Of a DNA stretch of 64,000 bases, positions 1,746 to 20,264 are shown piece after piece. Source of the DNA: a bacterium (GTDB lineage: Bacteria > UBA8248); contig OZ241875.1 in the NCBI GenBank assembly GCA_965203325.1, positions 2,816,001 to 2,880,000 of the forward strand, in the 5' to 3' direction. The notes under the pieces were generated by a model, which ran no database searches, was not told where the DNA came from, and was given only the letters and a program-made list of their open reading frames with translations. A program made the position numbers and the translations under genes. Position 1 is the stretch's first letter. Every line of letters begins with the position of its first letter.

Positions 1746-2738
1746 ATGGCAGGAGTACGCCATCGGCAGCATCCCTTCGACACCGATTTCCATCTCACCC
1801 CCGAGCACAAGGAGCAATTCCGGCGCGACGGCTTCGTCAAACTGGAAGGGTTCTACAACTCTGAAGTGGTCGAGACGCTGCTTGCTCGTGTCGAAGCCGA
1901 AATGGACCGGGGGGAGGCCGACAGTTTCAAGGCCGATGCAATGTTCAATCGAGCGAAGTATGACTTCGCAGGCGAAATGGGCGACGTCTATGAACTGCTG
2001 GAACGGCCTTACTTGCGAAGGACTCTTACGGATCTGGTCGAATGCGATCTCTTTTTGACTTTCGAGCAGTGCTTTGAAGTCGAAAAGAACGTCAGCAAGG
2101 GGTTTCCCTGGCATGTCGGCGCGCAGAGCTTCGGCTTTCAACCCGCGGAAGAATTCGCGTGCACGCTGTGGGGGCCGCTGCATCCCGTGGATACGAAGGG
2201 CCAGCGGGGCGGGATGGCTTATGTCCCCGATCATGTCATATCGGGCGATTTCATCTTCCACCAGATCGAGCCGGCGATTGTCTCGACGCTGGAGGCCAAG
2301 GAGCAAGCCGGCGTCAGGACGAACGTAAATGAATATTTCGACATGCGTTCGGGGATCCTCAATTCACCGACCATGTGCGAGATACTCGAGAACCACCAGG
2401 TCGAAGACGATTTCGAGCCCGGCGACGCGCTCCTGTTCAACAAAATGGTCGTCCACCGAAGCATCATGCTCGGTGAGGGTGCGCTTCCCAGGCGCGCCGC
2501 CTACGTGATGCGTTTTATCGATGCGGGCTCGCACTACGATCTGGAGCGGGCGCGGATGCTCGAATTCCCCGTGGAAATGTACGGAAAGGGGTTCTTCCCG
2601 TATAAACCTTTCACCCGTCAGCACATCGAGATCGCGGAAGCCGGAGCGAGCGACGGCGACCTTCTCGCGGAATGCGCCTTTTTCGACGAACGTGATCGCC
2701 GCACGATCCGGCGCGAACGCTCTCTCCAGGCCGGTTGA
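1746..2738 (+). CDS. PhyH-fold Fe(II)/2-oxoglutarate enzyme with HxG motif, predicted halogenase (copy 1)
   Basis: N-terminal LTPEHKEQFRRDGFVKL; PWHVG (His-Val-Gly at 2112-2120); CTLWGPL; PGDALLFNKMVVHRS...RRAAY. GGGAGGA RBS before ATG 1746. Confidence 0.8.
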   Translation: MAGVRHRQHPFDTDFHLTPEHKEQFRRDGFVKLEGFYNSEVVETLLARVEAEMDRGEADSFKADAMFNRAKYDFAGEMGDVYELLERPYLRRTLTDLVECDLFLTFEQCFEVEKNVSKGFPWHVGAQSFGFQPAEEFACTLWGPLHPVDTKGQRGGMAYVPDHVISGDFIFHQIEPAIVSTLEAKEQAGVRTNVNEYFDMRSGILNSPTMCEILENHQVEDDFEPGDALLFNKMVVHRSIMLGEGALPRRAAYVMRFIDAGSHYDLERARMLEFPVEMYGKGFFPYKPFTRQHIEIAEAGASDGDLLAECAFFDERDRRTIRRERSLQAG

Positions 2739-2767
2739 ATATCGCCGGCGGAAACGCGCAGGAGGAC

Positions 2768-3781
2768 ATGATGAACAGCCATCCTTTCGACAACGAGTTC
2801 CTCATCACCCCGGAGCAGAAGGAGCAATTCCGGCGCGACGGTTTCGTCAAACTGGAAGGGTTCTTGAACGATAACGTGGTGGAGGCGCTTCTGAATCGTG
2901 TCGAAGTCGAATTGAGCGGAGAAGGGGCCACCAACTTCAACAAATCTCGTTCAGCGGAGCTTCTCGACATACGAACGACGTATGACTTCGAGATCGATAA
3001 ATCGGAAGTCTATGAACTGATGGAACGGCCTTATTTCCGGCGGGCTCTGACGGATCTGGCCGAATGCGATCTCTTTCTGACTGCCGAGTTGTGCTTTGAA
3101 ATCGAAAAGAACGTCAGCAAGGGGCTCCCCTGGCATGTCGGCGTGCAGAGTTTCGGCTTTCAGCCCGCTGAGGAATTCGCGTGCACCATTTGGGCGCCGC
3201 TGCATCCCGTGGATACGAAGGGCCAGCGGGGTGGAATGGCTTATGTCCCCCAGAACGTCATATCGGGCGATTTCGTCTTCCGCCAGATCGAGCCGGCGGT
3301 TGTCTCGACGCTGGAGGCCAAGGAGCGCGCCGGGGTCAGGACGAACGTAAATGAGTACTTCGCCATGCGCGAAGGAATCCTCAATTCGCCGACCATGTGC
3401 GAGATACTCGAGAACCACCAGGTCGAAGACGATTTCGCGCCCGGCGACGCGCTCCTGTTCAACAAGATGGTCGTCCACCGCAGCATCATGCTCGGGGAGG
3501 GAGCGCTCCCCAGGCGCGCCGCCTACGCGATGCGCTTTGTGGATGTTGGGTCGCACTACGATCTTGAGCGGGCGAAAAACCTCGAATACCCCGCGGAACA
3601 GTACGGGAAGGGGTTCTTCCCGTATAAACCGATTACCCGTTTCCACATTGAAATCGCGGAAGCCGGAGCGCGCGACGGAGACGTTCTCGCGGAATGCGCC
3701 TTTTTCGATAACCGAGAGCGCCGCACGATGCGGCGCGAACGGGACTTTCGACCTGAATCAAAGGAGCGCGTGGAACGATGA
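2768..3781 (+). CDS. PhyH-fold Fe(II)/2-oxoglutarate enzyme with HxG motif, predicted halogenase (copy 2)
   Basis: Close paralog of the upstream gene; PWHVG at 3134-3142, VVHRS distal His at 3476-3478; CAGGAGGA RBS before ATG 2768/2771. Confidence 0.8.
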   Translation: MMNSHPFDNEFLITPEQKEQFRRDGFVKLEGFLNDNVVEALLNRVEVELSGEGATNFNKSRSAELLDIRTTYDFEIDKSEVYELMERPYFRRALTDLAECDLFLTAELCFEIEKNVSKGLPWHVGVQSFGFQPAEEFACTIWAPLHPVDTKGQRGGMAYVPQNVISGDFVFRQIEPAVVSTLEAKERAGVRTNVNEYFAMREGILNSPTMCEILENHQVEDDFAPGDALLFNKMVVHRSIMLGEGALPRRAAYAMRFVDVGSHYDLERAKNLEYPAEQYGKGFFPYKPITRFHIEIAEAGARDGDVLAECAFFDNRERRTMRRERDFRPESKERVER

Positions 3782-4965
3782 AACACGACCGTCAGATGGC
3801 GTTGCTCGACAGAATGCTTGAACTCCGCGGGCGACGCGAAGACCAAACGATTTACGACAAGGTCTTGCATCTGCCCCTGGACGCCTATACCAGCCAGGAG
3901 GTCTTCGAACGCGAGCTCGAGACGTTGTTTTTCGACAGCCCGCTCGTAGCCGGGCACATGGACGGCGTTCGTGAGCCTGGCAGTTACATGCTCAGCGACT
4001 GGACGCGACAGCCGTATTTCGTTGTCCGGGGCGAAGACGGCGTCCTTCGGGCATTTCTCAACACCTGCCGCCATCGGGGCGCGCCGCTTATTGTCAGGGA
4101 GAAAGACGAACCGCTGCGGGCGCTGGTTTGCCCGTTTCACGGGTGGACATATGGCCTGGACGGCGCACTGCGGGGTATTCCGCGATCATTCGGCTTTCCT
4201 GACATCGACAAGCGGGACTACGGCCTGAAAGCGTGTTCGGTGGCGGAAAGCGCGGGATTGGTATGGGTTCACCCGACCCGGCAGGAATCGTTCGATCCGG
4301 CGCAGGAACTGGGCGCTTTCGCGGAAGATTTCGCGGAGTTCCGTCTTGAGCGTTTTGTCAGCCACCGAAGGGTCGTGACGGAGAAAAAGGCCAACTGGAA
4401 GCTTCTTATTCAAATGAACCTGGAAGGCTACCACGTTGCGCATCTGCACAAAGGAACCCTGGCTCCGAATTTCCGCGAAGGTTTTTTTTCTCACGACGCG
4501 GAGGGGCCTCATCTGCGCGTTATGGCAGCACAAACGAACTTGCCTGATGCGGAAAACGTCCCGGAGAAACAGAGAAAGCTTATCGACTTCGTAACGCTTT
4601 TTTATGTTCTGTTCCCCAACACGATTTTCATTGTGCGCAAAGACACTATTTTAATCAGCAGGTTCTTGCCGCTGGCCCCGGATCGAACGCTCTGCTCGCA
4701 GGAACTGCTCTATCTTCCCGATAAATACGTCGGGGAGTCGGGGCAGAAAGCGTTGCGCAACCGCCTCCTCTACGCGGAAGTCACTATGGACGACGAAGAT
4801 TACACGATGGCGGAACGGATCCAGGCCAACCTGCTGAACGGAGTGAACGAAACCCACATGCTGGGTCTCGAGGAAGGGCTCGTGATGGTGTTTCAGGAGA
4901 TAGTCAGCAAGAGGTTGGCCGCACGGGAGTCCGCGACCGCAGACAGCTCCCGGCGAGGTTGTTGA
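3778..4965 (+). CDS. Rieske non-heme iron oxygenase, alpha subunit
   Basis: Rieske CRHRG...CPFHGW, mononuclear Fe motif NLEGYHVAHLH and distal DDED; ATGA overlap with upstream stop. Confidence 0.92.
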   Translation: MKHDRQMALLDRMLELRGRREDQTIYDKVLHLPLDAYTSQEVFERELETLFFDSPLVAGHMDGVREPGSYMLSDWTRQPYFVVRGEDGVLRAFLNTCRHRGAPLIVREKDEPLRALVCPFHGWTYGLDGALRGIPRSFGFPDIDKRDYGLKACSVAESAGLVWVHPTRQESFDPAQELGAFAEDFAEFRLERFVSHRRVVTEKKANWKLLIQMNLEGYHVAHLHKGTLAPNFREGFFSHDAEGPHLRVMAAQTNLPDAENVPEKQRKLIDFVTLFYVLFPNTIFIVRKDTILISRFLPLAPDRTLCSQELLYLPDKYVGESGQKALRNRLLYAEVTMDDEDYTMAERIQANLLNGVNETHMLGLEEGLVMVFQEIVSKRLAARESATADSSRRGC

Positions 4966-4980
4966 CCGCCCCTTGACTTG

Positions 4981-5234
4981 AAAAGCACCCCCCCCTACCC
5001 CCCCCCTTAACAGGGGGGTAAAAGCAGCGCCCCCTGACGAAGGTTTGACTCATCCGATGAAAGAGCAAGATACACTCCCCCCACCGACTCGCTTGCGGGC
5101 TTCGCCCTTACCTCGTCGACTCCCCCTCAAGGGGGGAGTGAATAAAATTCTTCTCGGTGGAAAGAAGGTCCTCCCGACAGGGGGGAATAAAAAAGACCCC
5201 CCTGACAAGGGGGGGTAGGGGGGGTTGCTCTTTT
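4981..5234. repeat. MITE/REP-like element with ~40-bp imperfect terminal inverted repeats and a nested smaller inverted-repeat element (5073-5140)
   Basis: Left arm AAAAGCACCCCCCCCTACCCCCCCCCTTAACAGGGGGGT mirrors right arm ACCCCCCTGACAAGGGGGGGTAGGGGGGGTTGCTCTTTT; inner CACTCCCCCC...GGGGGGAGTG. Confidence 0.65.
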
Positions 5235-5269
5235 GAAAAAGGCTTTTTCAACAGTCCTTCGCGCGCGGC

Positions 5270-6169
5270 CTAGCGAATTCCGTGGCTTGCCAGGTATTCC
5301 CGGACCATCGCGGCGCACTCCTCCGGCTTTTCCACCTGCAGGAAGTGCGAAGCCTCGGGCACGAAGTCGTAGTCGACAGCCGTTGCGTGACTCAGGTCGA
5401 AAGTCGGCAGGTACGCGAAGGGCAGCGTGGGATCAGCACCGATGACCTTCGTCGGGCAGGTCAGTATCGTCAGATCCAGCAAAGGCGAGAAGCTCCTCAC
5501 ATATTCCGCGATCTGGGCCTCGTAATCGCGCGGGCAGCGGAGTTCGTAAGCCTCTCCGTCGGCGCTCTTGCGAAGGGTCGACCGCGCTATGAGATCGCGC
5601 ACCCCCGGTAAGACGCGGTTGTATCCGGGAACGATGGCGAGGATTTCGGCTAACTGCTCCCGGCTCTCGAACCGATCCGCCCGCTTCCGGGTCATCGCCG
5701 CTATCCGTTCCGCCGCAGCGTCCCATTCCGCCTCTCTCCCGGCGGGTTTGCACAGCGGCGGATCGAACAGAACCAGCGCGGAATAGGCGTCGGTGAAGGA
5801 GAGGAGCGTCACAAGCGTCGAAAGGGAATGAAACACGCCCACGGTCGGTTTTTCGCCGTATTCCCGGACGATGGCGTCGAGTATGAGGTCATGGTCGGAA
5901 ATCAGCGCCGGAATGTTGTGATCCCGCTGCGCGCCGACGCTGTTCCAGCCATGGTTCCTGAGGTCGTAGACCATCAGGTCGAAATCGTCGGCGAGCAGCG
6001 ACCAGAACGGATAATAGGGATCGACCGCGAGACCGTTGCCGTGGGTCAGGACGAGCCGGGAACCTGCCGGATTGCCGTGTCGCCGCACCGTGGCCATAGC
6101 GTGTTCATCGAGTCGAACCTCGCACGTCGAAACGGGCTTGGGTATCGTCCAATGCGCTTCTTGCGCCAT
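5270..6169 (-). CDS. Alpha/beta hydrolase (SupD-like, putative thioesterase/acyltransferase)
   Basis: HGNG oxyanion loop, DLRNHG, nucleophile elbow variant GVFHSLS, catalytic His in ASHFLQVEKP; lies in the PKS operon. Confidence 0.85.
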   Translation of the reverse strand: MAQEAHWTIPKPVSTCEVRLDEHAMATVRRHGNPAGSRLVLTHGNGLAVDPYYPFWSLLADDFDLMVYDLRNHGWNSVGAQRDHNIPALISDHDLILDAIVREYGEKPTVGVFHSLSTLVTLLSFTDAYSALVLFDPPLCKPAGREAEWDAAAERIAAMTRKRADRFESREQLAEILAIVPGYNRVLPGVRDLIARSTLRKSADGEAYELRCPRDYEAQIAEYVRSFSPLLDLTILTCPTKVIGADPTLPFAYLPTFDLSHATAVDYDFVPEASHFLQVEKPEECAAMVREYLASHGIR

Positions 6170-6210
6170 ATCCGAAGGCCTGGCTGCGCTCGAGCGTCGA
6201 GGAACGCCGA

Positions 6211-6438
6211 TCAGCCGCGCGCGTCGATATGATCTGCAAGTTCCTGCAAAGTCTGGAACTTCGAGAAGTCCTCTATGGCCAACCCGAGGCCGAACTCCTC
6301 GTTGACGAGTTTGAAGAAGGCAACCGCCTCCATCGAGGTAACCTCTATTTCGCCGAGCTGGGCGTTGAAATCCGGCTCATGGCCGATGTCGAAACTGCTC
6401 GCGATGATCTTCTTGATGCGATCCTGTGTTGCCGACAT
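6211..6438 (-). CDS. Discrete acyl carrier protein (second copy)
   Basis: 75 aa, acidic, LGEIEVTSMEAV (Ser attachment site), EEFGL, FQTLQEL; AAGGAG RBS; paralog of 9578..9799. Confidence 0.8.
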   Translation of the reverse strand: MSATQDRIKKIIASSFDIGHEPDFNAQLGEIEVTSMEAVAFFKLVNEEFGLGLAIEDFSKFQTLQELADHIDARG

Positions 6439-6532
6439 GAGTGTTCACTCCTTTTCCAGTGGTAGCGGGCGCGAGCGGTGGCAGCAAGCGCGAGATTCTG
6501 AATTGGATACGTGCCGCAAAACCCGTATCTCA

Positions 6533-6562
6533 ATCATAAGTGAAGCACCCGCATCTTGACAA
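6533..6562 (-). promoter_or_regulatory. Putative sigma70 promoter for ACP2-hydrolase
   Basis: Minus strand TTGTCA-N18-TATGAT about 95 bp upstream of the ACP start. Confidence 0.4.
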
Positions 6563-6665
6563 GCCTCCGGCCCCTAAGGCGCAATCGAGGGCAGCGGCGA
6601 TGAGTTCCGGGGCGAGTTTCCGTAACCTGGCCTCCATTCTTTCTCGTTTGTGCGGGAACGAGCGG

Positions 6666-8396
6666 CTATGGCGCTTCCATGCGGACGGTCACGATGTCCA
6701 CTCCGTGGTATTGCTGGTGGCGAACCGAAGCCGCGAGATCACGCAAAAGCCGGAGCGACACCTCCTGCTCGAGGTGGGCTTCTTCCGTCTGCTCGCCGAG
6801 AAGCGCGACCTGATCCTCGAGGTTCCCTCCCTCGCCTGCCGCGGCGATGAACTCCAGAACGGCTGCGCCGCCGTCTTTTTTCGCGAGCAATACCACCCGT
6901 CGTCCGCTTTGCTCCCCATCCTTGTCTGGCCCGATCAGCGTCAGTAAGACTTCCTCGCAGACGCCGCCCAGACGCCTCGCCATCCCCTCATCCCAGTTGT
7001 ACGTGGAGGCGAACTCGCCGAGAAACTCCCTGAGCTCCGGCAGGGACGAGGTGTCGAGCGCCGTTTCCATCCGGGCGGGGCGGGGTTCGGTGATCTCCAC
7101 GAACAGGGTCATGACGATGGCGACGAGGCCGCCGGCCGTCATCCCGTTGTTCATCAGGCCGCCCGCGAATTCCGAGAAAAACTCCGGGAAGACAACCCCG
7201 CTCTGAAAAGCCACGCCGAGCCAGAACGAGACGCCGACGATCAGGCTCTTGCGGTAGTCGATCCCGTCCTGAACGATCATCTGCACGCCGATCATGAAGA
7301 GGATCGCCATCATCACGACGAGATAGGCGGCGAAGACCGGTCCCGGTATCGCCAGCACCAGGGCGAGCGCTTTAGGCAAAAACGCCAGCGCCGCGAACAT
7401 CGCGCCTGCGGCGATCCCGACGTGGCGGGCGGCGACTCCGGTGAGCTGGGTCAGGGATGCGCCCGTCGTATAGGACGTGTTCGGCACCGTTCCCGCCAGG
7501 CCGGAGAGCAGGTTGCTCAGAGCGTCGGTTGCCACCGCGCCCTGCACCGCCCGGAAATCCACCGCCCGGGGCCGGCGCCAGGAGACGCGCTGAGCGGCGG
7601 CGGCGCTGCTGATCGTCCGGATGGCGCCGATGGTGGCCGCCAGCAGGAACCCGGGAAGAAGCGACCAGAAAAGCGGCCCGAAGCCGAGATCGAGGCCCGG
7701 CCATTCGACCGAAGGCAGTCCGGCCCAGGCGGCCTCCGCGACGCGGGCCGTGTCGTAAATGCCGAAAAAGACGGCGACGAGCGATCCAGCGAGAATGCCG
7801 ATAACAGGCGCCCAGAGGCGAAGCGAGCCCGACGCCTTGAGGGTGAGGCCGCAGATGACGAGCACGGTCGCCAGAGCGCTCAGCGGAGCGCCCGGGGCCG
7901 GGCTGCCCTCCGGCACGTCCTTGAGCAGATTGAGGACGGGCGACATCACCGAAACGGGAATCAGCATGAGCACCGTGCCCGAGACGGCCGGGGTCAGGAT
8001 CCGCCGGAACAGCAAGAGTCTATCGGATATGACGAACTGAAAGAGCGCCGAGACGACGACCAGGGTGGCAAAGGTAGCGGGTCCTCCCTCGGCGAGCGCC
8101 TGAATGGATACTGCGATGAAGGCCCCCGAACTGCCCATCATGAGCACATGACCCATCCCGAAACGCCCGAGACGGAGTGCCTGGAGCATCGTGGCCCCGC
8201 CTCCGATAACGACGGCGGCGAACACGGCCCACGAGAGATAGGCTTCGCCTTGGCCGGCGGCCCGCATCACGACCGTCGTGAGCAAAATCGTGGCGGATAC
8301 GCTGAGTGCGGTGAGCTGCAGACCCAGGCCGAGGGAGATGGCGAGCGGTGGTTTTTCGTCGGCCTGGTAGCGGAGGCCGGAATCGTTCGCACTCAT
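6666..8396 (-). CDS. NCS2 (xanthine/uracil permease family) transporter with C-terminal HATPase/anti-sigma-like domain (SupE-like)
   Basis: YQADEKPP...LGLQ start, many hydrophobic helices, PNTSY...LTGVAAR signature region; ~140-aa soluble tail (LPELREFL...CEEVL...SLRLLRDLA...GVDIVTV). Confidence 0.85.
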   Translation of the reverse strand: MSANDSGLRYQADEKPPLAISLGLGLQLTALSVSATILLTTVVMRAAGQGEAYLSWAVFAAVVIGGGATMLQALRLGRFGMGHVLMMGSSGAFIAVSIQALAEGGPATFATLVVVSALFQFVISDRLLLFRRILTPAVSGTVLMLIPVSVMSPVLNLLKDVPEGSPAPGAPLSALATVLVICGLTLKASGSLRLWAPVIGILAGSLVAVFFGIYDTARVAEAAWAGLPSVEWPGLDLGFGPLFWSLLPGFLLAATIGAIRTISSAAAAQRVSWRRPRAVDFRAVQGAVATDALSNLLSGLAGTVPNTSYTTGASLTQLTGVAARHVGIAAGAMFAALAFLPKALALVLAIPGPVFAAYLVVMMAILFMIGVQMIVQDGIDYRKSLIVGVSFWLGVAFQSGVVFPEFFSEFAGGLMNNGMTAGGLVAIVMTLFVEITEPRPARMETALDTSSLPELREFLGEFASTYNWDEGMARRLGGVCEEVLLTLIGPDKDGEQSGRRVVLLAKKDGGAAVLEFIAAAGEGGNLEDQVALLGEQTEEAHLEQEVSLRLLRDLAASVRHQQYHGVDIVTVRMEAP

Positions 8397-8656
8397 GGCG
8401 CAACCGATGTCCTGAAAACACCGAACGCCCGCTCGACGAAACGGAAACGGCGCAGCACTTGAAGAATTCTCGTTTGGTCAACTCGTTCGAAGGGATAGCC
8501 CGCACCATAATCCGTCATAGACAAATCCCTCGTATCGCGAGTGAATCCATGGCTGAAAGGAACTGTTGAACAACCCCTCAAACCGCCGTCTTCCATGCGA
8601 ATTTCATGGGCGGAGAGCGGTTCGGGTATTTCCCGGACTTTTTCCGAAATCGTCAT
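8393..8656 (-). pseudogene. Internally deleted remnant of a SupD-like alpha/beta hydrolase
   Basis: N-terminus REIPEPLSAHEIRMEDG matches WTIPKPVSTCEVRLDEH of 5270..6169; the rest loosely resembles its C-terminus (TVPFSH, DLS..DY, ILQV); catalytic core absent; ATGA overlaps at both ends. Confidence 0.6.
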
Positions 8657-9393
8657 CGAGCCCCCTCGTTCTCTCCTCGAATGAACGCCTGGTCCGATTC
8701 ATAAGCGATGGCGGCGGCGAAATTTTCGTTCCCCAGATTTTCGAGTCTCCACTCGACTTTCGGTATCCAGGGAAACTGGAACATGCCCTTTCTCGCGCCG
8801 CGCCGTATGGCCTGTGGCACCTCGAACCGGGACGGATCCAGGGAAAACCCCGTGCCCAGAGCCTTTATCAGCGCCTCCTTGAGCGTCCAGAGCGTGAAGA
8901 ACAAGTGAAACTTTTCTCGTCCATGCGTCACTGCGAAGTCGGCTTGTTCGTCCGGACCAAACACGAACTCGCTAATCCCGTCGAGATCGAGGCGGTCGAC
9001 GCGTTCTTCCACGTCCACGCCGAGCCGTCCTCGAGGCGCAAGCGCAACCAGTCCATGTTTGCCGCTGTGAGATACGTTGAAGCTGACGGGAGCCGCTATC
9101 CCGTCCACAAGTGCGAACGGCTTTCCGTGTTCGGAAGCGCCGAACGCGAGTCGTTCGTTCCCGCAACCGAGCCGGCAGCAGAGAATGGAGCGCAACGCCG
9201 CGCGGCACAAGGCGAATTCACGCTTGGGGCGTTCATATTTATATCGCCGCCATCGTGACCGCTCTTCCTCATCTAGCCACGTCAAAGCGTACGCCTCGCG
9301 CTCCTCATGGGGTGTCAGGTCGACATGTATGACGAGAATATCGTCTATTTCACGGAACGTGTGAAACCAGGAATCGACAACCTCAGCAGCCAT
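8653..9393 (-). CDS. Sfp-type 4'-phosphopantetheinyl transferase (SupC-like)
   Basis: HGKP, FNVSHS, LGVDVE, WTLKEALIKALGTG motifs. Confidence 0.95.
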   Translation of the reverse strand: MAAEVVDSWFHTFREIDDILVIHVDLTPHEEREAYALTWLDEEERSRWRRYKYERPKREFALCRAALRSILCCRLGCGNERLAFGASEHGKPFALVDGIAAPVSFNVSHSGKHGLVALAPRGRLGVDVEERVDRLDLDGISEFVFGPDEQADFAVTHGREKFHLFFTLWTLKEALIKALGTGFSLDPSRFEVPQAIRRGARKGMFQFPWIPKVEWRLENLGNENFAAAIAYESDQAFIRGENEGAR

Positions 9394-9577: not shown

Positions 9578-9799
9578 TCAACTACCCAGATAGTTGATCA
9601 AGTCCCTCAAAGTTCTGAAGTCTCTGGCAATTTCTTGTGTAATTTCGACCTCGAATTCCCGATCGACGACCTTGAGAAAGTTCACGGCATCCACCGAGTT
9701 CACGCCGATTTCGCCTAAGTCCGCGTCCAGCATCGCCCGATCCGAGATGCCCAAATGTTTTTCCACAAGGTCTCCCATACGTTCTTCGACACTTGCCAT
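9578..9799 (-). CDS. Discrete acyl carrier protein (SupB-like)
   Basis: MASVEER...LGEIGVNSVDAV...REFEVEI...FRTLRDLINYL; directly downstream of the PKS. Confidence 0.88.
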   Translation of the reverse strand: MASVEERMGDLVEKHLGISDRAMLDADLGEIGVNSVDAVNFLKVVDREFEVEITQEIARDFRTLRDLINYLGS

Positions 9800-9855
9800 C
9801 GTCACGCTGTCTCCCATTTGAAAAATGTCAGAGCGGTGATTAAAACTATAGTGAA

Positions 9856-9883: not shown

Positions 9884-9887
9884 GCAT

Positions 9888-12800: not shown

Positions 12801-15800
12801 GGAGTCGTCCTCTGCGTCTTGAGCGCGGGAAAGCAGGTCTTCGAAAAACGGGGGAATGTTATCCAGGGTCTTTTCGAAAACAGACCAATCCCTCGCCAGC
12901 ACCATGGAATTCGCGGCGTCCTCGCGGACCAGCCGGTCGAATGCCCTGAGTCCCTGCTGCGGTGTCATCCAGTCGATTCCGGTCGCCGTGATGCTTTGGG
13001 AGATCCGCTCCCGCTGTTCCGCCGCTTCGCCGATTTCCGACCACGCGCCCCAGGCGATGGCCTGTCCCGGGAGTCCCAACGCGCGCCGGTGCGCGGCAAG
13101 TTGATCCAGGAACGCGTTGGCCGCCGAGTGGTTCGACTGGCCCGGATTGCCGAGCACGCCGGCCGCGCTCGAGAAGAGGACGAACATGTCCAGATCGCGA
13201 TCCTCCGTCGCGCGGTGCAGATGCCACGCGCCCAGCACCTTCGGCCACAGCACCCCCTCGAACCGCTCCCAGCTCTGGTTCCCGAGCGCGCCGTCAGAAA
13301 GCACCCCCACGCTGTGGATCACGCCGCCCAAAGGCGGCAAATCCGCATCCATCCGCGCCAGCATTTCGTCCACCGCGTCCGGGTCCGTCACGTCCGCGAG
13401 TTCCACCCGGACCGTGAACCCGCGCTTTCGCAACGATTCAACCGCTTCTTCGACCTCGGGGTCCGGGGGCCGCCGCCCATTGAGCACGATAGCTCCGGCC
13501 CCCCGGTCCGCCAGCCAATCGGCCACGGCGCACCCGATGCCGCCCAGACCGCCGGTGACGAGGTAGGTCCTGTCCTCCCGCAACCGCCCCCTGGTGAGCG
13601 GTGAGTTCGTAAAGACGATCTTCCCGATGTGGCGTCCGTCGCGCATGAACTCGACGGCCCGCCGCGCCTCGGCCAGCGGCCACCTGGTGTGGATGAGCGG
13701 CGTCAGTTCTCCCGCCGCCAGCCGCGCCATGATGCCTTTGAGCAGCGCTCCCGGCCGCTCCGGCTCATCATCTTTCATGGCGTCGAGCTTCACGATGTGA
13801 TAGGTCACGTCCGGCCGTACGGCCGCCATCTCTTCTTCGCTCAGAATGTCGCGCGCTGCCAGTTCCACGAAACGGCCGCCTTGCGCCAGACACGACAGGC
13901 TCGCGTCGATGAAGCCCTCCGCCGTCAGGCTGTTCAGGATCAGGTCGACGCCTTCGCCGCCCGTGGCCTCGAGTATCTCCTCCCCGAATTTCGTCTGGCG
14001 GCTGTCGAACACGTGCGCCACGCCGAGCGAGCGGAGATACGCCTGTTTCGGCGCGCTCGCGGTTGCGAACACTTCCGCTCCCGCCGCCTGCGCCAACTGG
14101 ATGGCTGCCAGACCCACGCCGCCCGCGCCTGCGTGAATCAGCACCCGATCACCTGCTTTCAGCCCCGCGAGTTCGTAAGAGAGCGCTGCGGACAAGAACA
14201 CCGTCGGCATCGTGGCGAGCGCCGCGGCCGGCAAATCCGCCGGAGCGGGCGCCACCAACTCCTCATGCGTCACGGACTCCGGGCCGAACATGCCGCGCGC
14301 GCCGCGCTTCACGCCGACCACGCGGTCGCCCACCGAAACGCTCGACACCTCGGAGCCGACTTCGAGGATATGGCCGCACATCTCCGTGCCCAGGAATTTT
14401 TCGTCAATCAGACCGAGCGCCGCGAACACGTCCCAGAAGTTGAGCCCCGCGGCCTCGACCGCCACGCGGACTTCTCTCGGCTCAAGCGGCGGCGACTCCG
14501 CCTGCAGCCCACTGAGCGCGCCGTCTTCGTCGACCCCGAGCAGCCAGTCCGGCTCTTCGGGCAAGGTCAGCCGCTCCGCCCCCTCGCCGGCCCGGACAAG
14601 GCGGGCGACGCGGCGCCTGTTGCCGCGGTGGACGATCTGGTTTTCCGTATCGGGGTAGAGCAGTTCATTGGCGAGATCCACCGGCGGCGCCGTCGGCTCG
14701 GGGTCCAGATCGAGCATCTTCGGCTGCATTTGGGATGTTTCCCGGGCCAAAGCCTTACCGAACCCCCACAGCACCGCACCGGCAAGCTCTCCGCCGCGTT
14801 CGCGCTCCAGCACCTGCGCGCCCCGCGTGAGGAACCAGAATCCCTTCCCGGGCGCCGCATCGGCGTCGGACATGGCTTGCGCCAGCGCCAGTGCGCTCGC
14901 GCCCACCCGTTTCACGTCCTCCGCCATCTCCGCCGTCGTCGCACCCGGCCCGTGGCCGTCGAGTGCGGCGAGATGCACGACGCCGCTGAGCGGCGGATCT
15001 TCGGGCAGGCCCTCCAGCAGCGCGCCCCAGGATTCGCGGCTATCCATCTCAAGAGTCGTATGGATGACTCCGGATTTTTCATCCGCCGGACCCCCGTCCG
15101 CCGAACCCGCCTCGCTCGCCAGCACGACCGTCTGGTTGCGCGACGCCAACTCCTCCGCCAGTTCCTCGGCCGCACCGCCGCGGTCCGCCGCCAGAACCCA
15201 AGCACCTGGACGCTCGGCCACCTCCTCGGACAGCTGCGCCAGAATCACGCCCCTGTCCGGCATCTCGACGGAGTCACCCCAGCCCAGCCCGAGAATCTCC
15301 ACGCCCTCGAAACCCGCGGCATCGAGGGACTGCCGCCATACGTCCGGCCCCGCCAGGGCGTAGGTGGGGCGGCAATCGTCGGAGAACCGCCACCAGCCGT
15401 CCAGTTGCCCGAAAGTCATATCCAGCCAGTCCTGGCCGCAAAGGTTCTCGAGCGCCACGAGGTGCCCCGAGGGCGCGAGAAGACTCCTGCAGTGCGTCAG
15501 CGTCTCCTCCAGGTAGCGCGTGGCGTGCAGCACGTTGGACGCGATCACCAAGTCATAGCCGTGGGAGTCGAAGCCCTGCTCCACCGGGTCTTTTTCGATG
15601 TCCAGCACCCGGTACTCGATGCAGCCGCCGCCGTCGCCGAACAGCCCCTCCGCCTGCGCGAAGAAGCCCGCCGAGATGTCCGTGTAGGTGTAGTCGAACC
15701 GTCCTTCGGGAAGCTCGGGCAGGACGGATTCGGTCGCCGACCCTGTGCCCGCCCCGACCTCGATCACCCGCAGGCGCCGTCCATCGGGCAAGCCGGCCAC

Positions 15801-18800
15801 TAGGGTGCGTATCGCGTCTCTCAGCATCAGATTCGCCGCCCGCCACACCGGCGCTTTGAAGTAGAGGTCCGCGGCGCTGGGCTCTCCACTGCCGAACAGG
15901 AGCGAGAGCGGATCCTCCTCGCCGCGAAGCACTTCCGCCAGGGCGCCCGCGCTTCTGCGGAACAGCCCGATCTCGTTGGAAGCATAAGCGTATCGCTCGA
16001 TCACCCCGGCCGCGAACTCCTCGGGATCCCCCGGCATGCCTTCCGGCAAGGGCTCTCCGGCCCCTACAGCGACGAGGAAACCTTCGCCCTCCGACTTAAG
16101 AACGCCCACCCTCTCCAATAACTCGAGCATCCGGCGGAACAGTTGGCTGTGTTGATCTTGCACCCCCAGGCGCTCCCGCAAATCTTCCGAATCCACGGCC
16201 TCACCCGCCTTCCGCTCCCATCCGAGTTTCTCCAGGGCCGCGAGCGCAAAATGCCGCGCCATGCACGAGAGGTCCGCCAGCACGGCGGGCCTCATTTCGG
16301 CATCGACTCCTTCCGCCGCCAGATAGCTGGAGAACGGCTCCCATCGCTCCGCGACCTCCACCGGACTCGGGAGGAAATCCGCAGGCTGTATTCCCGGCGG
16401 CAGGGCGCTATCGCGCCACACGACCTCGTAGAGAAGGTCGTCCAGCCCTTCCACCGCAGAGAGCAGCGCCGCCCGCGTCGCGCGCTTCACCATGAACCCG
16501 CTCAACTCGCCGATCAGCGTCCCGTTCTCGTCGCAGAGAAGAAAATCCGCGACGAAGACCTCCTGCGATCCGCCCGTTTCGGCGTCCGGTTCCTGGCTCT
16601 TCGGAGCCTCCCGCATGCGCACGTGGCAGAGAAGCCTGTCCGGCAGCTTCTCCGCCAGCCACAGCCGCTCCCAGCCGAACGGCAGGTAGGTGATCCCGTC
16701 CTCGGCCCCGCCCGGATTGCGCGCCGCCCCCATCACCTGAGAGCAGCCGTCGAGCAGGAGCGGGTGCACGTCGAGGGCGTTTTCGCCTAAAGCCTCAGGC
16801 CAGCACACCTCGCCCAGCGCCTCGCCCGCCCGGGACCAGACCGACCCCAGTGTACGGAAAGACGGGCCGAGATCGATTCCCACGGCCGCCTTGGCGCGGT
16901 AATACGCCGGCACGTCCTCGGGCGAAAGAGCGGCTTTCAGGCTTTCCAAATCTATCTGCTCCGCGGATTGCCGTCCGCCCGCTTCTGAGGGCGCGCGGCA
17001 CTCCGCGTGCAGCGTCCAGCCCTCCTCGGCCTCTCCTTTGCTGAATATCCGGACGAGGCGCGAGGGCTCCTCCCCCGGCGCCTCGAGCAGAACCTGTACT
17101 TCCCGACCGTCGCCGCCGTTCTCTGAATCTTCTTCCCCGAAGATCAGCGCGTTGTGGAACTGCATCTCCTCGATGAGCATCGTCCCGCTTCCCTCGGCGG
17201 TGGACGCCGATATCGCCATCGCTCCGTAGAGCGCACCCGGCGCGATGACCCGGCCGAACACCCGGTGATCGTTCATCCACGCCGGATCAGACGGCAGCAC
17301 TTCGGTCTCGAAGGTGATCTCGCCGCCGGCGGACTCATGCCTCTCGCCCAAAAGCGGATGGCCTGCACTCTGCCGCCGCCGCTTCGGTCCCTCGACCCAG
17401 TAGCGTTCGCGCTGGAACGGATAGCCAGGGAGCGAGATGCGACGCCGGGTCTCCCCTGCGAACAATCCCTCGAAGGAAAGATCGACTCCGGCTTCATAGG
17501 CCCCAGCCACAGCGCTCATGAAGCCCGCTTCGAGCTCGTCCGCCGGTTTCTCCTCGTCTTGCGATGGTCTTTGCAGGCTCGACAATACGAGAGGAGCCTC
17601 GATGCCCACACCTGCGGCATCCGCACCTTCATCCGGACCCGGCCAGGTGAGAGACAGCATCGGGCCAAGCACCGCGTGCGGACCGACTTCCACCACCAGG
17701 TCGACGCCCAGATTCGCCAGCGCCCGGACGCCGAGGTCGAACGCCACCGCCTCGCGGGCATGCCGGCGCCAGTACGCTCCGCCGAGTATCTCGTCCGGTT
17801 CCACCACCCGGCCCGTCACGTTGCTCACCAGAGTCGTGAGCGAGGGCGGCGCAATCTCGATTCCTCCAAAAAGTTCTTCCAGCGCATCCAGAGCAGGCTC
17901 CACGAGGGGGCTGTGGAACGCCTGGCTCGTGTGGATCGGTCTCACCCGGACTTCTTCCGATTCGAAGCGCTCCGAGACCGCCTCGACCGCGGAGACCTGG
18001 CCGCTCAACACCTGGTGCGCCCCGTTTCTCGCCGCAATCGCAAGCCTCTCGCTCCCGGCCGCCTCGTTGTATTCACGCACCGCCGCTTCCACTCTTGTGT
18101 AGGGAGCGAAGACGGCCGCCATCGTCCCGGCTTCCGGGACTGATGAGAGTATCTCGCTCCGCCCCATGACGGCCCGCATCCCGTCTTCGAGCCCGAACAC
18201 GCCCGCCGTATGCGCCGCCCCGAACTCCCCGACGCTGTGGCCCACCACCACGTCCGGGCGAACCTCGAGGCTCGCCCAAAGCGCCGTAACCGCGCACTCG
18301 AGCGCGTAGATGGCCGGCTGCGCCCAGACCGTGTCGTAGAGGTCTCCCCCGCCGCGTCCGAACATCACGTCCAGAAGCGAGGCGCCTCTCTCCGCGCGAA
18401 CGACTTCTTCACAGCGAGCGAGAACCGCCCGCGCCACAGGTTCCGTCTCGTACAGGTCCCGCCCCATGCCGACCCACTGGCTTCCCTGCCCGGTGAAGAG
18501 GAAAGCGACCTTGGTCGTCGTTCGCGCCTCCGGCGCTTCAGCTCCTTCGGCCAGGGCGCTCAATCGCTCCCGTAGCCGCTTGGCGTCGCCGAAGAGGAGT
18601 CCCGCGCGGTGCGTGAAATGGCTCCGCCCCACGCCGGCCGTCCACGCCATGTCCGAGAGCAGCGGCTCCGAGGCGGCGCTTTGGGAAGCGAGTTCTTCGC
18701 CGCGCCCATCGAGCCAGGAGAGATACCGCCCGGCTAGGTCCCGAAGCGCGCCCTCGGACTTTCCCGAGAGCGGAAGGAGCCTTGTCTCGCGCTCGATGTG

Positions 18801-20264
18801 CCCGTCTTCCGCCACCGGCTCGGGTAGTGACACGGTGATCGGCAGTGCGGAACCCACGGGTTCAACCATGGAGCCGGCGGTGGAATCCCCCTCCGATTCT
18901 TCGTATCTTTCCACGACGATGTGCGCGTTCGTGCCCGACCAGCCGAACCCGCTTACCCCCGCCCTCGGGGGATGATCGGGATGGCGCGGCCACTCCGTCG
19001 CCTCCGCCGTCACCTGCAGGGACATTTGTTCCCAGTCCACCGCCGGAGTGGGTTCCTGGAAGTGAAGGTGTTTGGGAATCACCCCTTGCTTCAGGGCCAG
19101 CGCCGTCTTGATCACGCCTGCGACCCCCGCCGCAGACTCCAAGTGACCGATGTTCGTCTTCACCGAGCCGATCAGGAGCGGGCGGTCCGCATCGCGGCCC
19201 TTGCCGTAAGCTGCCGCCGCCGCTTCCAGCTCGATGGGGTCGCCCACCTCCGTTCCCGTCCCGTGCGCTTCGAGGTAATCCACTTCATGGGGCCTGATTC
19301 CGGCTTGCGCGAGCGCATCCGCTATCACTCGTTCCTGCGCTGGGCCGCTCGGCACCGTCAGCCCCGGACTCGCGCCGTCCTGGTTGATGGCCGACCCGCG
19401 AATGACGCCCCAGATGCGGTCGCCGTCCGCTTCCGCCTCTGCGAGCCGTTTGAGCGCCACGATCCCGCAGCCCTCGCCCCGTACGTACCCGTTCGCGGCG
19501 GCGTCGAACGTCGCGCACCGCCCGTCGGGCGAGAGCATCCCGGCGTTGCCGCGCAACTCCAGCAGGCGGCCCGAGAGGATCGTGTGCACCCCTCCCGCCA
19601 GGGCCAGATCCGCCTCCCCCCGCTGTAGGCCCGCCACCGCCTGGTGGATCGCGACCAGCGATGAGGAGCAGGCGGTGTCCAGCGCGATCGCCGGCCCCTC
19701 GAATCCCAGCGCGAAGGCGACCCGTCCGACGGCCGTGTTGAATGAAGTGCCGCTCACCGTATACAGGCTCGTGGCGGGTTCCGCGGTATCGCTGACCTCC
19801 ATGATCAGGCTGCGGTATTCGTTGTTGCTGACGCCTCCGTATACGCCGGTGCGGCTGCCCCTGAGCCGTTTCGGGTCCATCCCCGCATCCTCGAGCGCCT
19901 GCCAGCTCGTCTCCAGCATGAGCCGCTGCTGGGGATCCAGGAGTTGGGCCTCGACTGGCGAAATGCGGAAAAACGCGGCGTCGAACCGGTCGATCTCGTC
20001 GAGATAGGCGCCGAAGCGGCAGGCCGGGCTCTGGATTTCGGCGTCGGGGAACAGCACGCCCACGCGCCCGATGCCTGAACCCGGAACGCCCTCGGTCACC
20101 GCGTTCTCTCCGGCCTCGAGCAGACGCCAGAAGGCCGGAATGCCGACGGCATTGGGAAAGCGGCACGCCATGCCCACAATCGCTATGGGATCTCCTCGCC
20201 GGGAAGCTTCCGGCGCGCCGACGTCAGATCCCTCGGAAGGATCGAAATTTCCGTCCGCGTTCAT
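9888..20264 (-). CDS. supA: Type I PKS/FAS, KS-AT-DH-cMT-ER-KR-ACP-KS-AT(inactive), SupA-type
   Basis: KS1 DTACSSS/HGTGT/NIGHLE; AT1 GHSVG, QAFHS; DH HRVFGRVIAP; MT VIEVGAGTG; ER LIHAGAGGVG; KR TGGLGGIG; ACP GMDSL; KS2 DMTCASS; AT2 GARAG. Domain order and downstream ACP-PPTase-hydrolase-permease match the sup operon. Alternative TTG start at 20279. Confidence 0.9.
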   Translation of the reverse strand: MNADGNFDPSEGSDVGAPEASRRGDPIAIVGMACRFPNAVGIPAFWRLLEAGENAVTEGVPGSGIGRVGVLFPDAEIQSPACRFGAYLDEIDRFDAAFFRISPVEAQLLDPQQRLMLETSWQALEDAGMDPKRLRGSRTGVYGGVSNNEYRSLIMEVSDTAEPATSLYTVSGTSFNTAVGRVAFALGFEGPAIALDTACSSSLVAIHQAVAGLQRGEADLALAGGVHTILSGRLLELRGNAGMLSPDGRCATFDAAANGYVRGEGCGIVALKRLAEAEADGDRIWGVIRGSAINQDGASPGLTVPSGPAQERVIADALAQAGIRPHEVDYLEAHGTGTEVGDPIELEAAAAAYGKGRDADRPLLIGSVKTNIGHLESAAGVAGVIKTALALKQGVIPKHLHFQEPTPAVDWEQMSLQVTAEATEWPRHPDHPPRAGVSGFGWSGTNAHIVVERYEESEGDSTAGSMVEPVGSALPITVSLPEPVAEDGHIERETRLLPLSGKSEGALRDLAGRYLSWLDGRGEELASQSAASEPLLSDMAWTAGVGRSHFTHRAGLLFGDAKRLRERLSALAEGAEAPEARTTTKVAFLFTGQGSQWVGMGRDLYETEPVARAVLARCEEVVRAERGASLLDVMFGRGGGDLYDTVWAQPAIYALECAVTALWASLEVRPDVVVGHSVGEFGAAHTAGVFGLEDGMRAVMGRSEILSSVPEAGTMAAVFAPYTRVEAAVREYNEAAGSERLAIAARNGAHQVLSGQVSAVEAVSERFESEEVRVRPIHTSQAFHSPLVEPALDALEELFGGIEIAPPSLTTLVSNVTGRVVEPDEILGGAYWRRHAREAVAFDLGVRALANLGVDLVVEVGPHAVLGPMLSLTWPGPDEGADAAGVGIEAPLVLSSLQRPSQDEEKPADELEAGFMSAVAGAYEAGVDLSFEGLFAGETRRRISLPGYPFQRERYWVEGPKRRRQSAGHPLLGERHESAGGEITFETEVLPSDPAWMNDHRVFGRVIAPGALYGAMAISASTAEGSGTMLIEEMQFHNALIFGEEDSENGGDGREVQVLLEAPGEEPSRLVRIFSKGEAEEGWTLHAECRAPSEAGGRQSAEQIDLESLKAALSPEDVPAYYRAKAAVGIDLGPSFRTLGSVWSRAGEALGEVCWPEALGENALDVHPLLLDGCSQVMGAARNPGGAEDGITYLPFGWERLWLAEKLPDRLLCHVRMREAPKSQEPDAETGGSQEVFVADFLLCDENGTLIGELSGFMVKRATRAALLSAVEGLDDLLYEVVWRDSALPPGIQPADFLPSPVEVAERWEPFSSYLAAEGVDAEMRPAVLADLSCMARHFALAALEKLGWERKAGEAVDSEDLRERLGVQDQHSQLFRRMLELLERVGVLKSEGEGFLVAVGAGEPLPEGMPGDPEEFAAGVIERYAYASNEIGLFRRSAGALAEVLRGEEDPLSLLFGSGEPSAADLYFKAPVWRAANLMLRDAIRTLVAGLPDGRRLRVIEVGAGTGSATESVLPELPEGRFDYTYTDISAGFFAQAEGLFGDGGGCIEYRVLDIEKDPVEQGFDSHGYDLVIASNVLHATRYLEETLTHCRSLLAPSGHLVALENLCGQDWLDMTFGQLDGWWRFSDDCRPTYALAGPDVWRQSLDAAGFEGVEILGLGWGDSVEMPDRGVILAQLSEEVAERPGAWVLAADRGGAAEELAEELASRNQTVVLASEAGSADGGPADEKSGVIHTTLEMDSRESWGALLEGLPEDPPLSGVVHLAALDGHGPGATTAEMAEDVKRVGASALALAQAMSDADAAPGKGFWFLTRGAQVLERERGGELAGAVLWGFGKALARETSQMQPKMLDLDPEPTAPPVDLANELLYPDTENQIVHRGNRRRVARLVRAGEGAERLTLPEEPDWLLGVDEDGALSGLQAESPPLEPREVRVAVEAAGLNFWDVFAALGLIDEKFLGTEMCGHILEVGSEVSSVSVGDRVVGVKRGARGMFGPESVTHEELVAPAPADLPAAALATMPTVFLSAALSYELAGLKAGDRVLIHAGAGGVGLAAIQLAQAAGAEVFATASAPKQAYLRSLGVAHVFDSRQTKFGEEILEATGGEGVDLILNSLTAEGFIDASLSCLAQGGRFVELAARDILSEEEMAAVRPDVTYHIVKLDAMKDDEPERPGALLKGIMARLAAGELTPLIHTRWPLAEARRAVEFMRDGRHIGKIVFTNSPLTRGRLREDRTYLVTGGLGGIGCAVADWLADRGAGAIVLNGRRPPDPEVEEAVESLRKRGFTVRVELADVTDPDAVDEMLARMDADLPPLGGVIHSVGVLSDGALGNQSWERFEGVLWPKVLGAWHLHRATEDRDLDMFVLFSSAAGVLGNPGQSNHSAANAFLDQLAAHRRALGLPGQAIAWGAWSEIGEAAEQRERISQSITATGIDWMTPQQGLRAFDRLVREDAANSMVLARDWSVFEKTLDNIPPFFEDLLSRAQDAEDDSPALADDLIARLGETPAAERESLLVSFLQQELQAVLRLPSAPEPTVGFFDLGMDSLMAVELRNRLNRAFADAYTAPNTVVFDYPDIAVLARHLAEELGDVGPAPAPQAQPEPERRPAVRREEEQIAVVGMACRFPGAPDIAAFWRLLEAGVDAVTDGRRGTGPWGGVAGDPAAEKDFYRQGGFIEGIDQFDAKFFGIRPIEARLMDPRQRLLLETTWQVLEDAGIDPAPLKGTRTGAYVGLGVSEYRDLVVAGGLDDSHIGNAPSVAIGRIAFAFGLMGPAVPLDMTCASSLVAVHQAAAALREGEVDLALAGGVHAVLSPPVSKFMAEFGMLSPSGRCRTFDADADGYVRGEGCGMVVMKRLSDAETDGDRIWGLVQGSAVNQNGASAALTVPNGTAQEQVLEDALSRSGFSPSEVDYLEVHATGSQLGDPIEVRASAAVYGRDRAPDRPLLLGTVKTNIGHLESAAGIAGLIKVLLAMKHGVIPKHLHFDDPNPHMDWDALPVRVTSEATAWPLVSDRPRRAGVSAFALSGTNAHVLVEGYGAPEEDSVAEAGRGSPAGSAQPVSVTLPDSVPKSQAAEGLRPRRTRLLPLSGKSGDALRESAERYLSWLDECAGELSAEGAAAEPLLSDMAWTAAVGRSHFAHRAGVAFEDAASLREGLGALAESDELPKPQTAARVAFAYAGEDDIRTGMGQELYESEPVARAVLDRCDEVLRVERGASLLDVMFDREGELDDPAWAQPAAFALECALTALWSSIGIRPNVVFGARAGEIAAAHAAGVFTLEEGLRFAARRGALMEAVSREEGAEAALYDLETALEGVVTALPSLTLVNQVTGRALNSGETMDGAYWRRQASEPAAFEGCAKTLAESGVEVVVEIGPDAAFVPQVLSAWPDLSGDAGASENGAAPPVVLSSLNRTSERGVGFVEAVARTYEAGLTLDFAGLFAGEERRRISLPGYPFQRRRFWFEAP

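Follow-up and report, generated by a model that had tools for sequence, protein, structure and literature searches.

Which substrate do two adjacent, putative iron-dependent halogenases act on when their genes converge on the operon of a fatty-acid-type polyketide synthase (PKS)? The question is raised by a 64-kb stretch of contig OZ241875.1 (the window, meaning the whole stretch of DNA that was analysed; coordinates are positions in it). Here, the genes for two PhyH proteins, Hal1 and Hal2, and for a Rieske oxygenase on the plus strand converge on a minus-strand operon for an α/β-hydrolase, a discrete acyl carrier protein (ACP2), a permease, a 4'-phosphopantetheinyl transferase (PPTase), another discrete carrier protein (ACP1) and a type I PKS of the sup type. 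Genes were called from open reading frames (ORFs) and Pfam matches. In our reading, the locus encodes a fatty-acid pathway built on a sup-type PKS, whose tailoring enzymes are BtnX-type radical halogenases and whose released methyl-branched acid would be halogenated at C-2. Judged on the sequence comparisons given below, the chances of this reading are slightly better than even.

Active site and closest relatives of Hal1 and Hal2

Both PhyH proteins contain the HxG motif that the first-pass annotation had ascribed to them (PWHVG(A/V)QSFG) and a second His in FNKMVVHRS. The 2-His-1-Gly iron site of Hal1 consists of H123-V-G125 and H237, and Hal2 has the equivalent residues. The two proteins are 78% identical, and the loop preceding a conserved Tyr differs between them. 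Among solved structures, the best match of Hal1 was 'Biotin halogenase BtnX' (PDB 9PV1/9Q04) with an E-value of 1.2e-136 over residues 7-323, and in a tblastn search Hal1 was 66% identical to a plasmid gene of D. shibae (NC_009955 89192-90076). CurA Hal was the second-best solved relative and a distant one (E 7.5e-25).

BtnX (Dshi_3684) is encoded on the 'killer plasmid' pDSHI01 of Dinoroseobacter shibae and was described by Kipouros & Chang (Nature 2026, PMC13489965). According to that report, it converts biotin to 2R-chlorobiotin and also accepts Br- and N3-. Its substrates are free carboxylic acids, which react at C-2, and not acids bound to a carrier; just the propionate head group is required, and free fatty acids as well as many other acids are chlorinated. 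The substrate carboxylate is held by Y64, Q119, S120 and R248, while G117 creates the space for the chloride, and the variants G117D and G117E are hydroxylases (PMC13489965). A structure of BtnX at 1.2 Å exists.

In an alignment with verified numbering offset, all seven of these BtnX residues (two His, Gly, Tyr, Gln, Ser and Arg) recurred unchanged in both Hal1 and Hal2. The 2-His-1-Gly site aligned with H115, G117 and the distal His of BtnX, and the carboxylate network aligned with Y72, Q127, S128 and R256 of Hal1 and with identical residues of Hal2. Because the iron-site and carboxylate residues are all conserved, both proteins are assigned as predicted BtnX-type Fe(II)/2-oxoglutarate radical halogenases made for free carboxylate binding, and not as enzymes of the SyrB2/HctB type. 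Ratios of nonsynonymous to synonymous substitution rates (dN/dS) against the orthologs were 0.20-0.26 for Hal1 and 0.13-0.14 for Hal2. The Rieske gene, with 0.37-0.55, was looser than the halogenases (0.13-0.26), and all three genes are under purifying selection.

Recurrence of the halogenase-PKS pair

GTDB representative genomes were scanned with an alignment of 17 family members. This gave 54 loci, which were compared together with their 10-kb flanks with all window proteins and with the BioY/ECF proteins of D. shibae (tblastn). Six loci held fragments or a truncated pseudogene only, and the 48 full-length ones comprised six from the window genus and 42 from elsewhere. Outside the genus, 20 of the 42 had a sup-type PKS within 10 kb that was colinear over all four segments tested (KS-AT, DH-MT, ER-KR-ACP and KS-AT, in this order; 45-70% identity). 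These 20 loci belong to Gemmatimonadota, Pseudomonadota (alpha and gamma), Chloroflexota, Dadabacteria, Binatota, Acidobacteriota and Actinomycetota, which makes eight phyla with the Nitrospinota of the window. The other 22 comprised L055 with ACP, PPTase and permease genes and no PKS in the available sequence, four loci with BioY-ECF genes and 17 with neither. Nine further loci on JGI metagenome contigs gave three with the PKS, one partial, three with BioY-ECF and two that were too short.

About nine gene orders were found among the 20 PKS-adjacent loci. In L021, L024, L045, L053, L054 and L079, the PKS gene follows immediately after the halogenase gene in the same orientation; in L023, the halogenase comes after PKS-PPTase-hydrolase. 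In three loci it is placed, with gaps of <100 nt, between ACP-PPTase on one side and the hydrolase (L043) or the end of the PKS (L044 and L080) on the other. Halogenase and PKS genes are divergent in Arenicellales loci and convergent at the window locus. A simple estimate puts chance adjacency within 10 kb in a genome of 3-4 Mb at about 1%, compared to the 20 of 42 observed. One convergent pair could be chance, but its recurrence across genomes is not, and since the two genes are adjacent in so many arrangements, halogenase and PKS are taken to be functionally coupled. The view of the first-pass annotation that adjacency was the only link between them is thereby refuted, the pairing being conserved over eight phyla.

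DUF5916 proteins of 800-865 aa, one of them with a CBM9 domain, are encoded upstream of the halogenase in three loci of Gemmatimonadota and Acidobacteriota (L021:5287-7884, L037:7352-9835 and L045:6408-8813). They were the only addition to the known gene set when the ORFs of 19 of 26 PKS-linked loci and the window were clustered, a result that was blurred by antisense ORFs in GC-rich DNA.

In D. shibae and on a Pseudosulfitobacter plasmid, bioY-ecfA-ecfT follow directly downstream of the halogenase gene, and it was because of this position that biotin was proposed as substrate of BtnX. The association was limited to L031, L039, L040, L060, L075-L077 and the two plasmids. By tblastn, no BioY, EcfA or EcfT homolog was found in the genus loci or over the first 24 kb of the window, nor in the 38 non-BioY loci outside the genus (leaving out 30%-identity EcfA-like matches ~5 kb off in L026 and L056). 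Pfam searches around the 17 loci with neither context found no biotin gene and no common theme among the neighbours; 12 of 15 tested genomes of this group encode the PKS type elsewhere. As biotin-related contexts amount to four and PKS-related ones to 20 of the 42 loci outside the genus, the distribution suggests that most BtnX-family members do not act on biotin.

A quick maximum-likelihood tree was calculated for 56 halogenase sequences and rooted, weakly, on the most distant, long-branched one. The BioY-linked alphaproteobacterial genes formed a basal grade, and all PKS-adjacent copies fell into one clade of 47 sequences (SH-aLRT 96) together with the 'orphan' copies from metagenome-assembled genomes (MAGs). 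Neither this tree nor one of the ER-KR-ACP part of the PKS followed taxonomy, and both share one cross-phylum grouping, that of Bryobacterales L049 with gammaproteobacterial L052. The pair thus appears to have been exchanged among symbionts, probably by repeated re-association, instead of being inherited as a fixed unit. The Hal1 and Hal2 orthologs form separate sister clades within the genus (support 99 and 100), so that the second halogenase most probably arose by duplication there.

The HxG motif was kept in 51 of the 56 sequences and reads HxD or HxE in the remaining five. Members with such a motif are PKS-adjacent in L027, L042 and L045; L057 has one as well, and L030 carries an HVD and an HVG copy in tandem. 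Because of the G117D/E experiment with BtnX, they are predicted to be hydroxylases: by analogy, they should be natural counterparts of these variants that hydroxylate C-2 of the same substrate. The PKS-adjacent ones fit a family that functionalises C-2 of the PKS product.

Within the window genus, 22 other species genomes were surveyed in addition to the window genome (G000); as kin, they are not independent cases. Halogenase, Rieske and PKS genes are colinear in G002, G010, G012, G020 and G000, and split over two contigs in G011. G016 has a PKS ortholog (80% identity, beside rarA) with ACP, PPTase and hydrolase genes and lacks halogenase, Rieske, ACP2 and permease. In G014, only a truncated halogenase interrupted by a TAG codon was left (L034, G014:C1:3313516-3314244, residues 8-249), and neither PKS nor Rieske gene was found in this genome. 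In G017 (79% complete), Hal1 is frameshifted and Hal2 intact, the Rieske gene is present twice, and a contig end carries the beginning of the accessory genes. Among 121 Acidimicrobiales genomes that served as background, three had the PKS and one of these three the halogenase, so that both are infrequent in this order. The halogenase is therefore an accessory to a subset of sup-type operons and not part of their core, and it decays where the operon is gone.

A metagenome contig of Nitrospinota type (L073, 372 kb) carries a single Hal1-like gene (89%) converging on permease, hydrolase B, PPTase, ACP and PKS, and has no Rieske gene and no second ACP.

The window genome itself has a second sup-type PKS locus at G000:C1:about 455,000-468,500 (L071, L072) with ACP, PPTase and hydrolase B genes and no halogenase. 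Its PKS is 58% identical to that of the window over the MT-ER segment and 57-70% over the KS-AT segments. Next to this locus, the first 174 residues of a truncated permease are encoded, with 89% identity to the window permease, which hints at recombination between the two PKS loci.

The occurrence of the locus agrees with that of sup genes, as it was seen in sponge-metagenome runs and PKS homologs were present in MAGs of eight phyla. Window positions 1500-10000 were covered at a share of at least 0.5 of the sampled words in seven sequencing runs, three of them labelled sponge metagenome, and at smaller shares in further runs, ten studies in all. RNA-seq contigs from two libraries of one sponge study, derived from related strains (90-97% identity), cover Hal1, the Hal1-Hal2 junction, Rieske, hydrolase-ACP2, ACP1 and parts of the PKS. 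Stretches of the permease and PKS have no coverage, from which nothing follows, because contigs cannot demonstrate absence. They are a weak hint of expression, as DNA carry-over is possible and contigs cannot rank genes.

Proposed pathway and alternative readings

By Pfam, the PKS has the domains KS-AT-DH-MT-ER-KR-ACP plus an extra KS-AT0. KS1 carries the Cys/His/His triad together with DPQQ, and GHSVG is found in AT1. The terminal KS-AT0 (residues about 2600-3458; window 9888-12480, minus strand) keeps Cys/His/His in KS2 (TCASS, HATGS, NIGH), while AT2 is degenerate: GQGSQ is lost, GHSVG is changed to GARAG and ~80 residues are deleted. For this ACP-less end of the PKS, AT1 acting in trans and the discrete ACP1 are probably needed; ACP1 is the likely partner of the KS-AT0 didomain and is retained behind the PKS in relatives. 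Among the matches listed (120 protein clusters), more than 100 are proteins of 3.3-3.7 kaa with the same Pfam set, mostly with 63-70% identity. The name SupA was absent among these 120 listed homologs and among seven PKS clusters that were looked up. The label sup-type is therefore used because of the architecture, the accessory genes typical of sup clusters and the habitat.

Judging by its domain set, the iterative module KS-AT-DH-cMT-ER-KR-ACP would build a saturated methyl-branched acyl chain. The terminal KS-AT0 would work with ACP1 after activation by the PPTase of the cluster, and the α/β-hydrolase would release the free acid. This hydrolase, presumed to be the acid-releasing thioesterase, is the accessory gene most frequently found alongside halogenase and PKS: outside the genus, 17 of the 20 PKS-adjacent loci have a homolog with 48-64% identity. 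By homology, Hal1 and Hal2 would then use Fe(II), 2-oxoglutarate, O2 and halide, bind the free carboxylate through Tyr/Gln/Ser/Arg and replace the hydrogen at C-2 with Cl or Br, which would give an α-halo methyl-branched fatty acid. The two enzymes may differ in chain preference or halide or may act sequentially; the duplication makes double halogenation possible. The Rieske monooxygenase, apparently co-translated with Hal2, may oxidise the product further.

This last oxidation is probable and yet the weakest and most lineage-specific step. The Rieske protein contains the cluster ligands CRHRG...CPFHGW and a His-x4-His iron site in EGYHVAHLH, as is typical of an alpha subunit, with Pfam E-values of 6e-14 (PF00355) and 1.5e-29 (PF00848); no beta-subunit or reductase gene lies beside its gene. 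Its nearest solved relatives, matched over the N-terminal half only with E about 1e-26, are 3N0Q, the carnitine monooxygenase CntA and the stachydrine demethylase type. With the NCBIfam model GbcA, it scored 113 bits against a cut-off of 670, and a protein-cluster search found generic ring-hydroxylating oxygenase clusters only. Relatives with >80% identity were found in the window genus only; five Actinomycetota-type loci (L042, L043, L046, L055 and L080) have a distant Rieske gene (28% identity) in the vicinity of the halogenase. An HxG PhyH gene beside the PKS in related genomes, for which the first-pass annotation had proposed a search, was found, while a close Rieske gene at its side was limited to the genus. 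The 'three-gene operon' of that annotation was not borne out as a unit, given that the close Rieske gene is genus-only, Hal2 appears to be a genus-level duplicate and the locus L073 has a single halogenase without Rieske. Flags of one TGA in Rieske orthologs were considered as breaks or recoding and rejected, as they mark the natural stop four codons earlier.

Several observations weigh against a common pathway of halogenase and PKS. Outside the genus, 17 of 42 loci have no adjacent PKS, and no comparable PKS was found in three genomes that have a BtnX-like gene (those of L059 and L062 gave no match, that of L064 a partial one of 40%). The halogenase in turn is absent from two of the three PKS-bearing Acidimicrobiales genomes, from G016 and from the second sup-type locus of the window genome. 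Sup-type PKSs are common in sponge symbionts and genome-level co-occurrence is confounded by lifestyle, so that only adjacency is informative. The halogenase and PKS trees conflict in at least three well-supported places (L041/L045, L042/L046 and L043/L044), which weakens a simple co-transfer argument. The nearest Rieske relatives act on small betaines (carnitine, glycine betaine and stachydrine) and not on lipids. Moreover, BtnX has a Km of <2 µM for biotin, and its binding of octanoate is more than tenfold weaker (PMC13489965), so that biotin or another small carboxylate could be the substrate here, too. Several of these points speak for unrelated neighbours, with the halogenases acting on biotin or another small free carboxylate and with shared gene islands among sponge symbionts accounting for the proximity of the PKS. 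In a variant of this explanation, a betaine-type compound would be shared with the CntA/GbcA-like Rieske enzyme, and the product might be an antimetabolite. We consider such unrelated functions unlikely. They do not sit well with the lack of BioY, EcfA and EcfT in the 38 non-BioY loci and of biotin genes near the 17 loci without PKS, with an adjacency far above the estimated chance level, or with the position of the halogenase inside the accessory gene set in L043, L044 and L080.

The first-pass annotation had placed the substrate on a carrier, proposing that the chain or an intermediate is halogenated on a discrete ACP (ACP2) in the manner of CurA Hal, SyrB2 or HctB, then oxidised and hydrolysed off. 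CurA Hal is indeed the second-best solved relative, and two discrete ACPs as well as a dedicated PPTase are encoded in the cluster. A carrier-bound substrate would also fit the finding that ACP2 and the permease were seen in this genus only together with the halogenase: ACP2 is present in L015, L016, L018, L019 and L020 and was not found in the halogenase-less loci L069 (G016) and L071. However, this pattern was seen among close kin and could go back to one event, and most PKS-linked loci of other phyla have a single discrete ACP, the one to be expected with an ACP-less KS-AT0. The distance from the halogenases to the two ACP genes on the opposite strand is 2.4 and 5.8 kb. With 66% identity, Hal1 is far closer to BtnX than BtnX-subfamily members are to CurA Hal (about 25-30%, according to PMC13489965). 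BtnX uses free acids, and the four residues that hold the free carboxylate, a group which a thioester does not have, are identical in Hal1 and Hal2. Halogenation on the carrier is thus not supported and appears improbable.

Finally, we know of no α-halo acids from sponges. The enzymes might hydroxylate or desaturate in vivo in spite of their HxG motif, or halogenation might be cryptic with the halide being lost later through the Rieske enzyme or by spontaneous substitution to the 2-hydroxy acid. HxD/HxE members in the same PKS context indicate that the pathway tolerates hydroxylation, and α-methoxylated fatty acids are known from sponges (PMC3826128). In contrast, HxG prevails in the family, and in BtnX it leads to halogenation and its G117D/E exchange to hydroxylation (PMC13489965). 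The cluster has no obvious dehalogenating partner either, and we regard an absent or transient halogenation as very unlikely.

Both families are known, that of the enzymes since 2026 and that of the PKSs since 2007, while their pairing was not found in print. A literature search gave no report of a halogenase, PhyH protein or dioxygenase with sup clusters; Supplementary Fig. 2 of the BtnX paper, available as a picture only, might show such clusters, and the text of its supplement has no match for 'sponge', 'PKS' or 'fatty acid'. A combined search for sponge 2-hydroxy, 2-methoxy and brominated fatty acids returned nothing, and a simpler one gave only α-methoxy papers. Sup PKS genes dominate PKS surveys of sponges with high microbial abundance and their products are still only proposed (PMC4245539, PMC9426513). 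The pairing points to an undescribed class of halogenated lipids. It predicts, in a testable way, a branched fatty acid with a 2-chloro or 2-bromo substituent, or one with a 2-hydroxy group where the motif is HxD/E. More tentatively, and with less than even chances, C-2 functionalisation of sponge-symbiont sup-PKS fatty acids could be the native role of the BtnX family in most lineages (HxG members halogenating, HxD/E members hydroxylating), the halogenation of biotin beside BioY being a separate specialisation in Roseobacter-type bacteria. On this wider reading, sup clusters of some symbionts would make α-halo or α-hydroxy methyl-branched fatty acids, and these could feed the α-functionalised (2-hydroxy, 2-methoxy) lipids of sponges. 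The family would in addition offer dozens of natural variants of a promiscuous C-H halogenase, which are of interest for biocatalysis.

Layout of the locus and comparison with known systems

The gene content and coordinates of the first-pass annotation, including the start codons of Hal1 and PKS, as well as its housekeeping flanks with purE/RidA on one side and rarA on the other, agreed with the ORF and Pfam calls.

Table. Features of the halogenase-PKS locus and its flanks; positions refer to the window.
Feature	Position	Strand	Length	Pfam match or other characteristic
purE (flank, halogenase side)	159..788			Pfam
RidA (flank, halogenase side)	804..1238			Pfam
Hal1	1746..2738	+	330 aa	PhyH
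Hal2	about 2768..3781	+		PhyH
Rieske / Ring_hydroxyl_A alpha subunit	3778..4965	+	395 aa	Rieske + Ring_hydroxyl_A
Convergent intergenic region	4966..5269	.		C6...G6 hairpins
α/β-Hydrolase	5270..6169	-		Abhydrolase_6
ACP2, discrete	6211..6438	-		PP-binding; Ser in EVTSME
NCS2 (xanthine/uracil permease family) transporter	6666..8396	-	576 aa	Xan_ur_permease, E 4e-38
ORF, hydrolase B relic	8393..8656	-	87 codons	no Pfam or NCBIfam match
Sfp/HetI-type PPTase	8653..9393	-		ACPS + AASDHPPT_N
ACP1, discrete, directly behind PKS	9578..9817	-		PP-binding; Ser in GVNSVD
Sup-type type I PKS	9888..20264	-	3458 aa	KS-AT-DH-cMT-ER-KR-ACP-KS-AT0
rarA/MgsA (flank, PKS side, which also has pyrF)	20725..22167			Pfam

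Hal1 starts with an ATG preceded by the ribosome-binding site GAGGGAGG, and the ATG of the PKS at 20264 is likewise preceded by GAGGGAG, a site of the same type. The Hal2 stop and the Rieske start overlap by 4 nt. The purE/RidA flank (159-1238) was absent within 10 kb upstream in L015, L016, L018 and L020, the four full loci of the genus, while the rarA flank is retained in G016; the synteny break falls at the halogenase end of the cluster.

The C6...G6 hairpins between the two converging gene groups correspond to four overlapping pattern matches at two hairpin sites, compared to 0.04 expected, and the pattern is restricted to 4966-5269 within the window. Metagenome contig depth spikes ~40-fold in this region (3890 vs ~100 in X15), which suggests a short repeat common to many loci or genomes. 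A scan for promoters and terminators gave no more sites than shuffled controls; the sole site worth naming is terminator-like and lies at 5216-5196, where it could serve the minus-strand operon.

Among the accessory genes, the permease scored under the cut-offs of the NCBIfam models ncs2 and pbuX, and the PPTase under that of HetI. Permease homologs occur in the PKS-halogenase loci L035/36/38, L041, L042, L046, L055, L073 and L080. The ORF at 8393-8656 is no gene itself; it is what remains of a second hydrolase gene ('hydrolase B') that was deleted. Its first 23 codons match the beginning of the hydrolase encoded between PPTase and permease in L020 with 78% identity. Hydrolase B is 57% identical to the hydrolase at 5270-6169 and is intact at the position of the relic in L020, in G016 and in the second locus of the window genome.

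Four known systems can be compared with the locus. The sup ('sponge symbiont ubiquitous PKS') clusters were reportedly described by Fieseler in 2007 and Hochmuth in 2010. Their supB-E genes encode ACP, PPTase, hydrolase and permease. The clusters are also treated in PMC4245539, PMC3908369 and PMC9426513; there, the sup PKS is described as a small monomodular type (PMC4245539), with SUP-like families in several phyla independent of taxonomy (Loureiro et al. 2022, PMC9426513). The window PKS resembles them in its one reducing module with a C-methyltransferase, in its KS with DPQQ and HGTGT, in the ACP, PPTase, hydrolase and permease genes alongside and in its presence in sponge metagenomes; its taxonomy-independent distribution is as in PMC9426513. 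This is a comparison by description, and the terminal KS-AT0 may or may not be part of what was published.

With CntA, GbcA and stachydrine demethylase (PDB 6Y8J, 3VCA and 3N0Q), the Rieske enzyme has the Rieske [2Fe-2S] cluster, the His-x4-His catalytic domain and the lack of an adjacent beta-subunit gene in common. It differs from them in that the alignment is limited to its residues about 30-227, and its gene is predicted to be co-translated with a halogenase and has no reductase gene nearby.

CurA Hal (PDB 3NNF), SyrB2 and HctB share the cupin/PhyH fold, the HxG/HxA iron site and a PKS context with carrier proteins with Hal1 and Hal2. Unlike these enzymes, Hal1 and Hal2 are neither fused to a carrier nor encoded directly beside one, and they have the carboxylate residues for a free acid.

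The closest known system is BtnX, with 66% identity to Hal1 and the same 2-His-1-Gly site and Tyr/Gln/Ser/Arg network in both halogenases, and the chemistry expected from this likeness is an Fe/2-oxoglutarate-dependent C-2 halogenation of a free carboxylic acid. The context is different: BtnX and its alphaproteobacterial orthologs are encoded directly upstream of bioY-ecfA-ecfT, whereas Hal1 and Hal2 stand beside a sup-type PKS without any biotin gene. The PKS-linked clade is also set apart by two short insertions close to the C-terminus and by group-specific residues (Y226 replaced mostly by M, F245 by Y, A275 by P and S279 by Q), and at the window locus the halogenase gene is duplicated.

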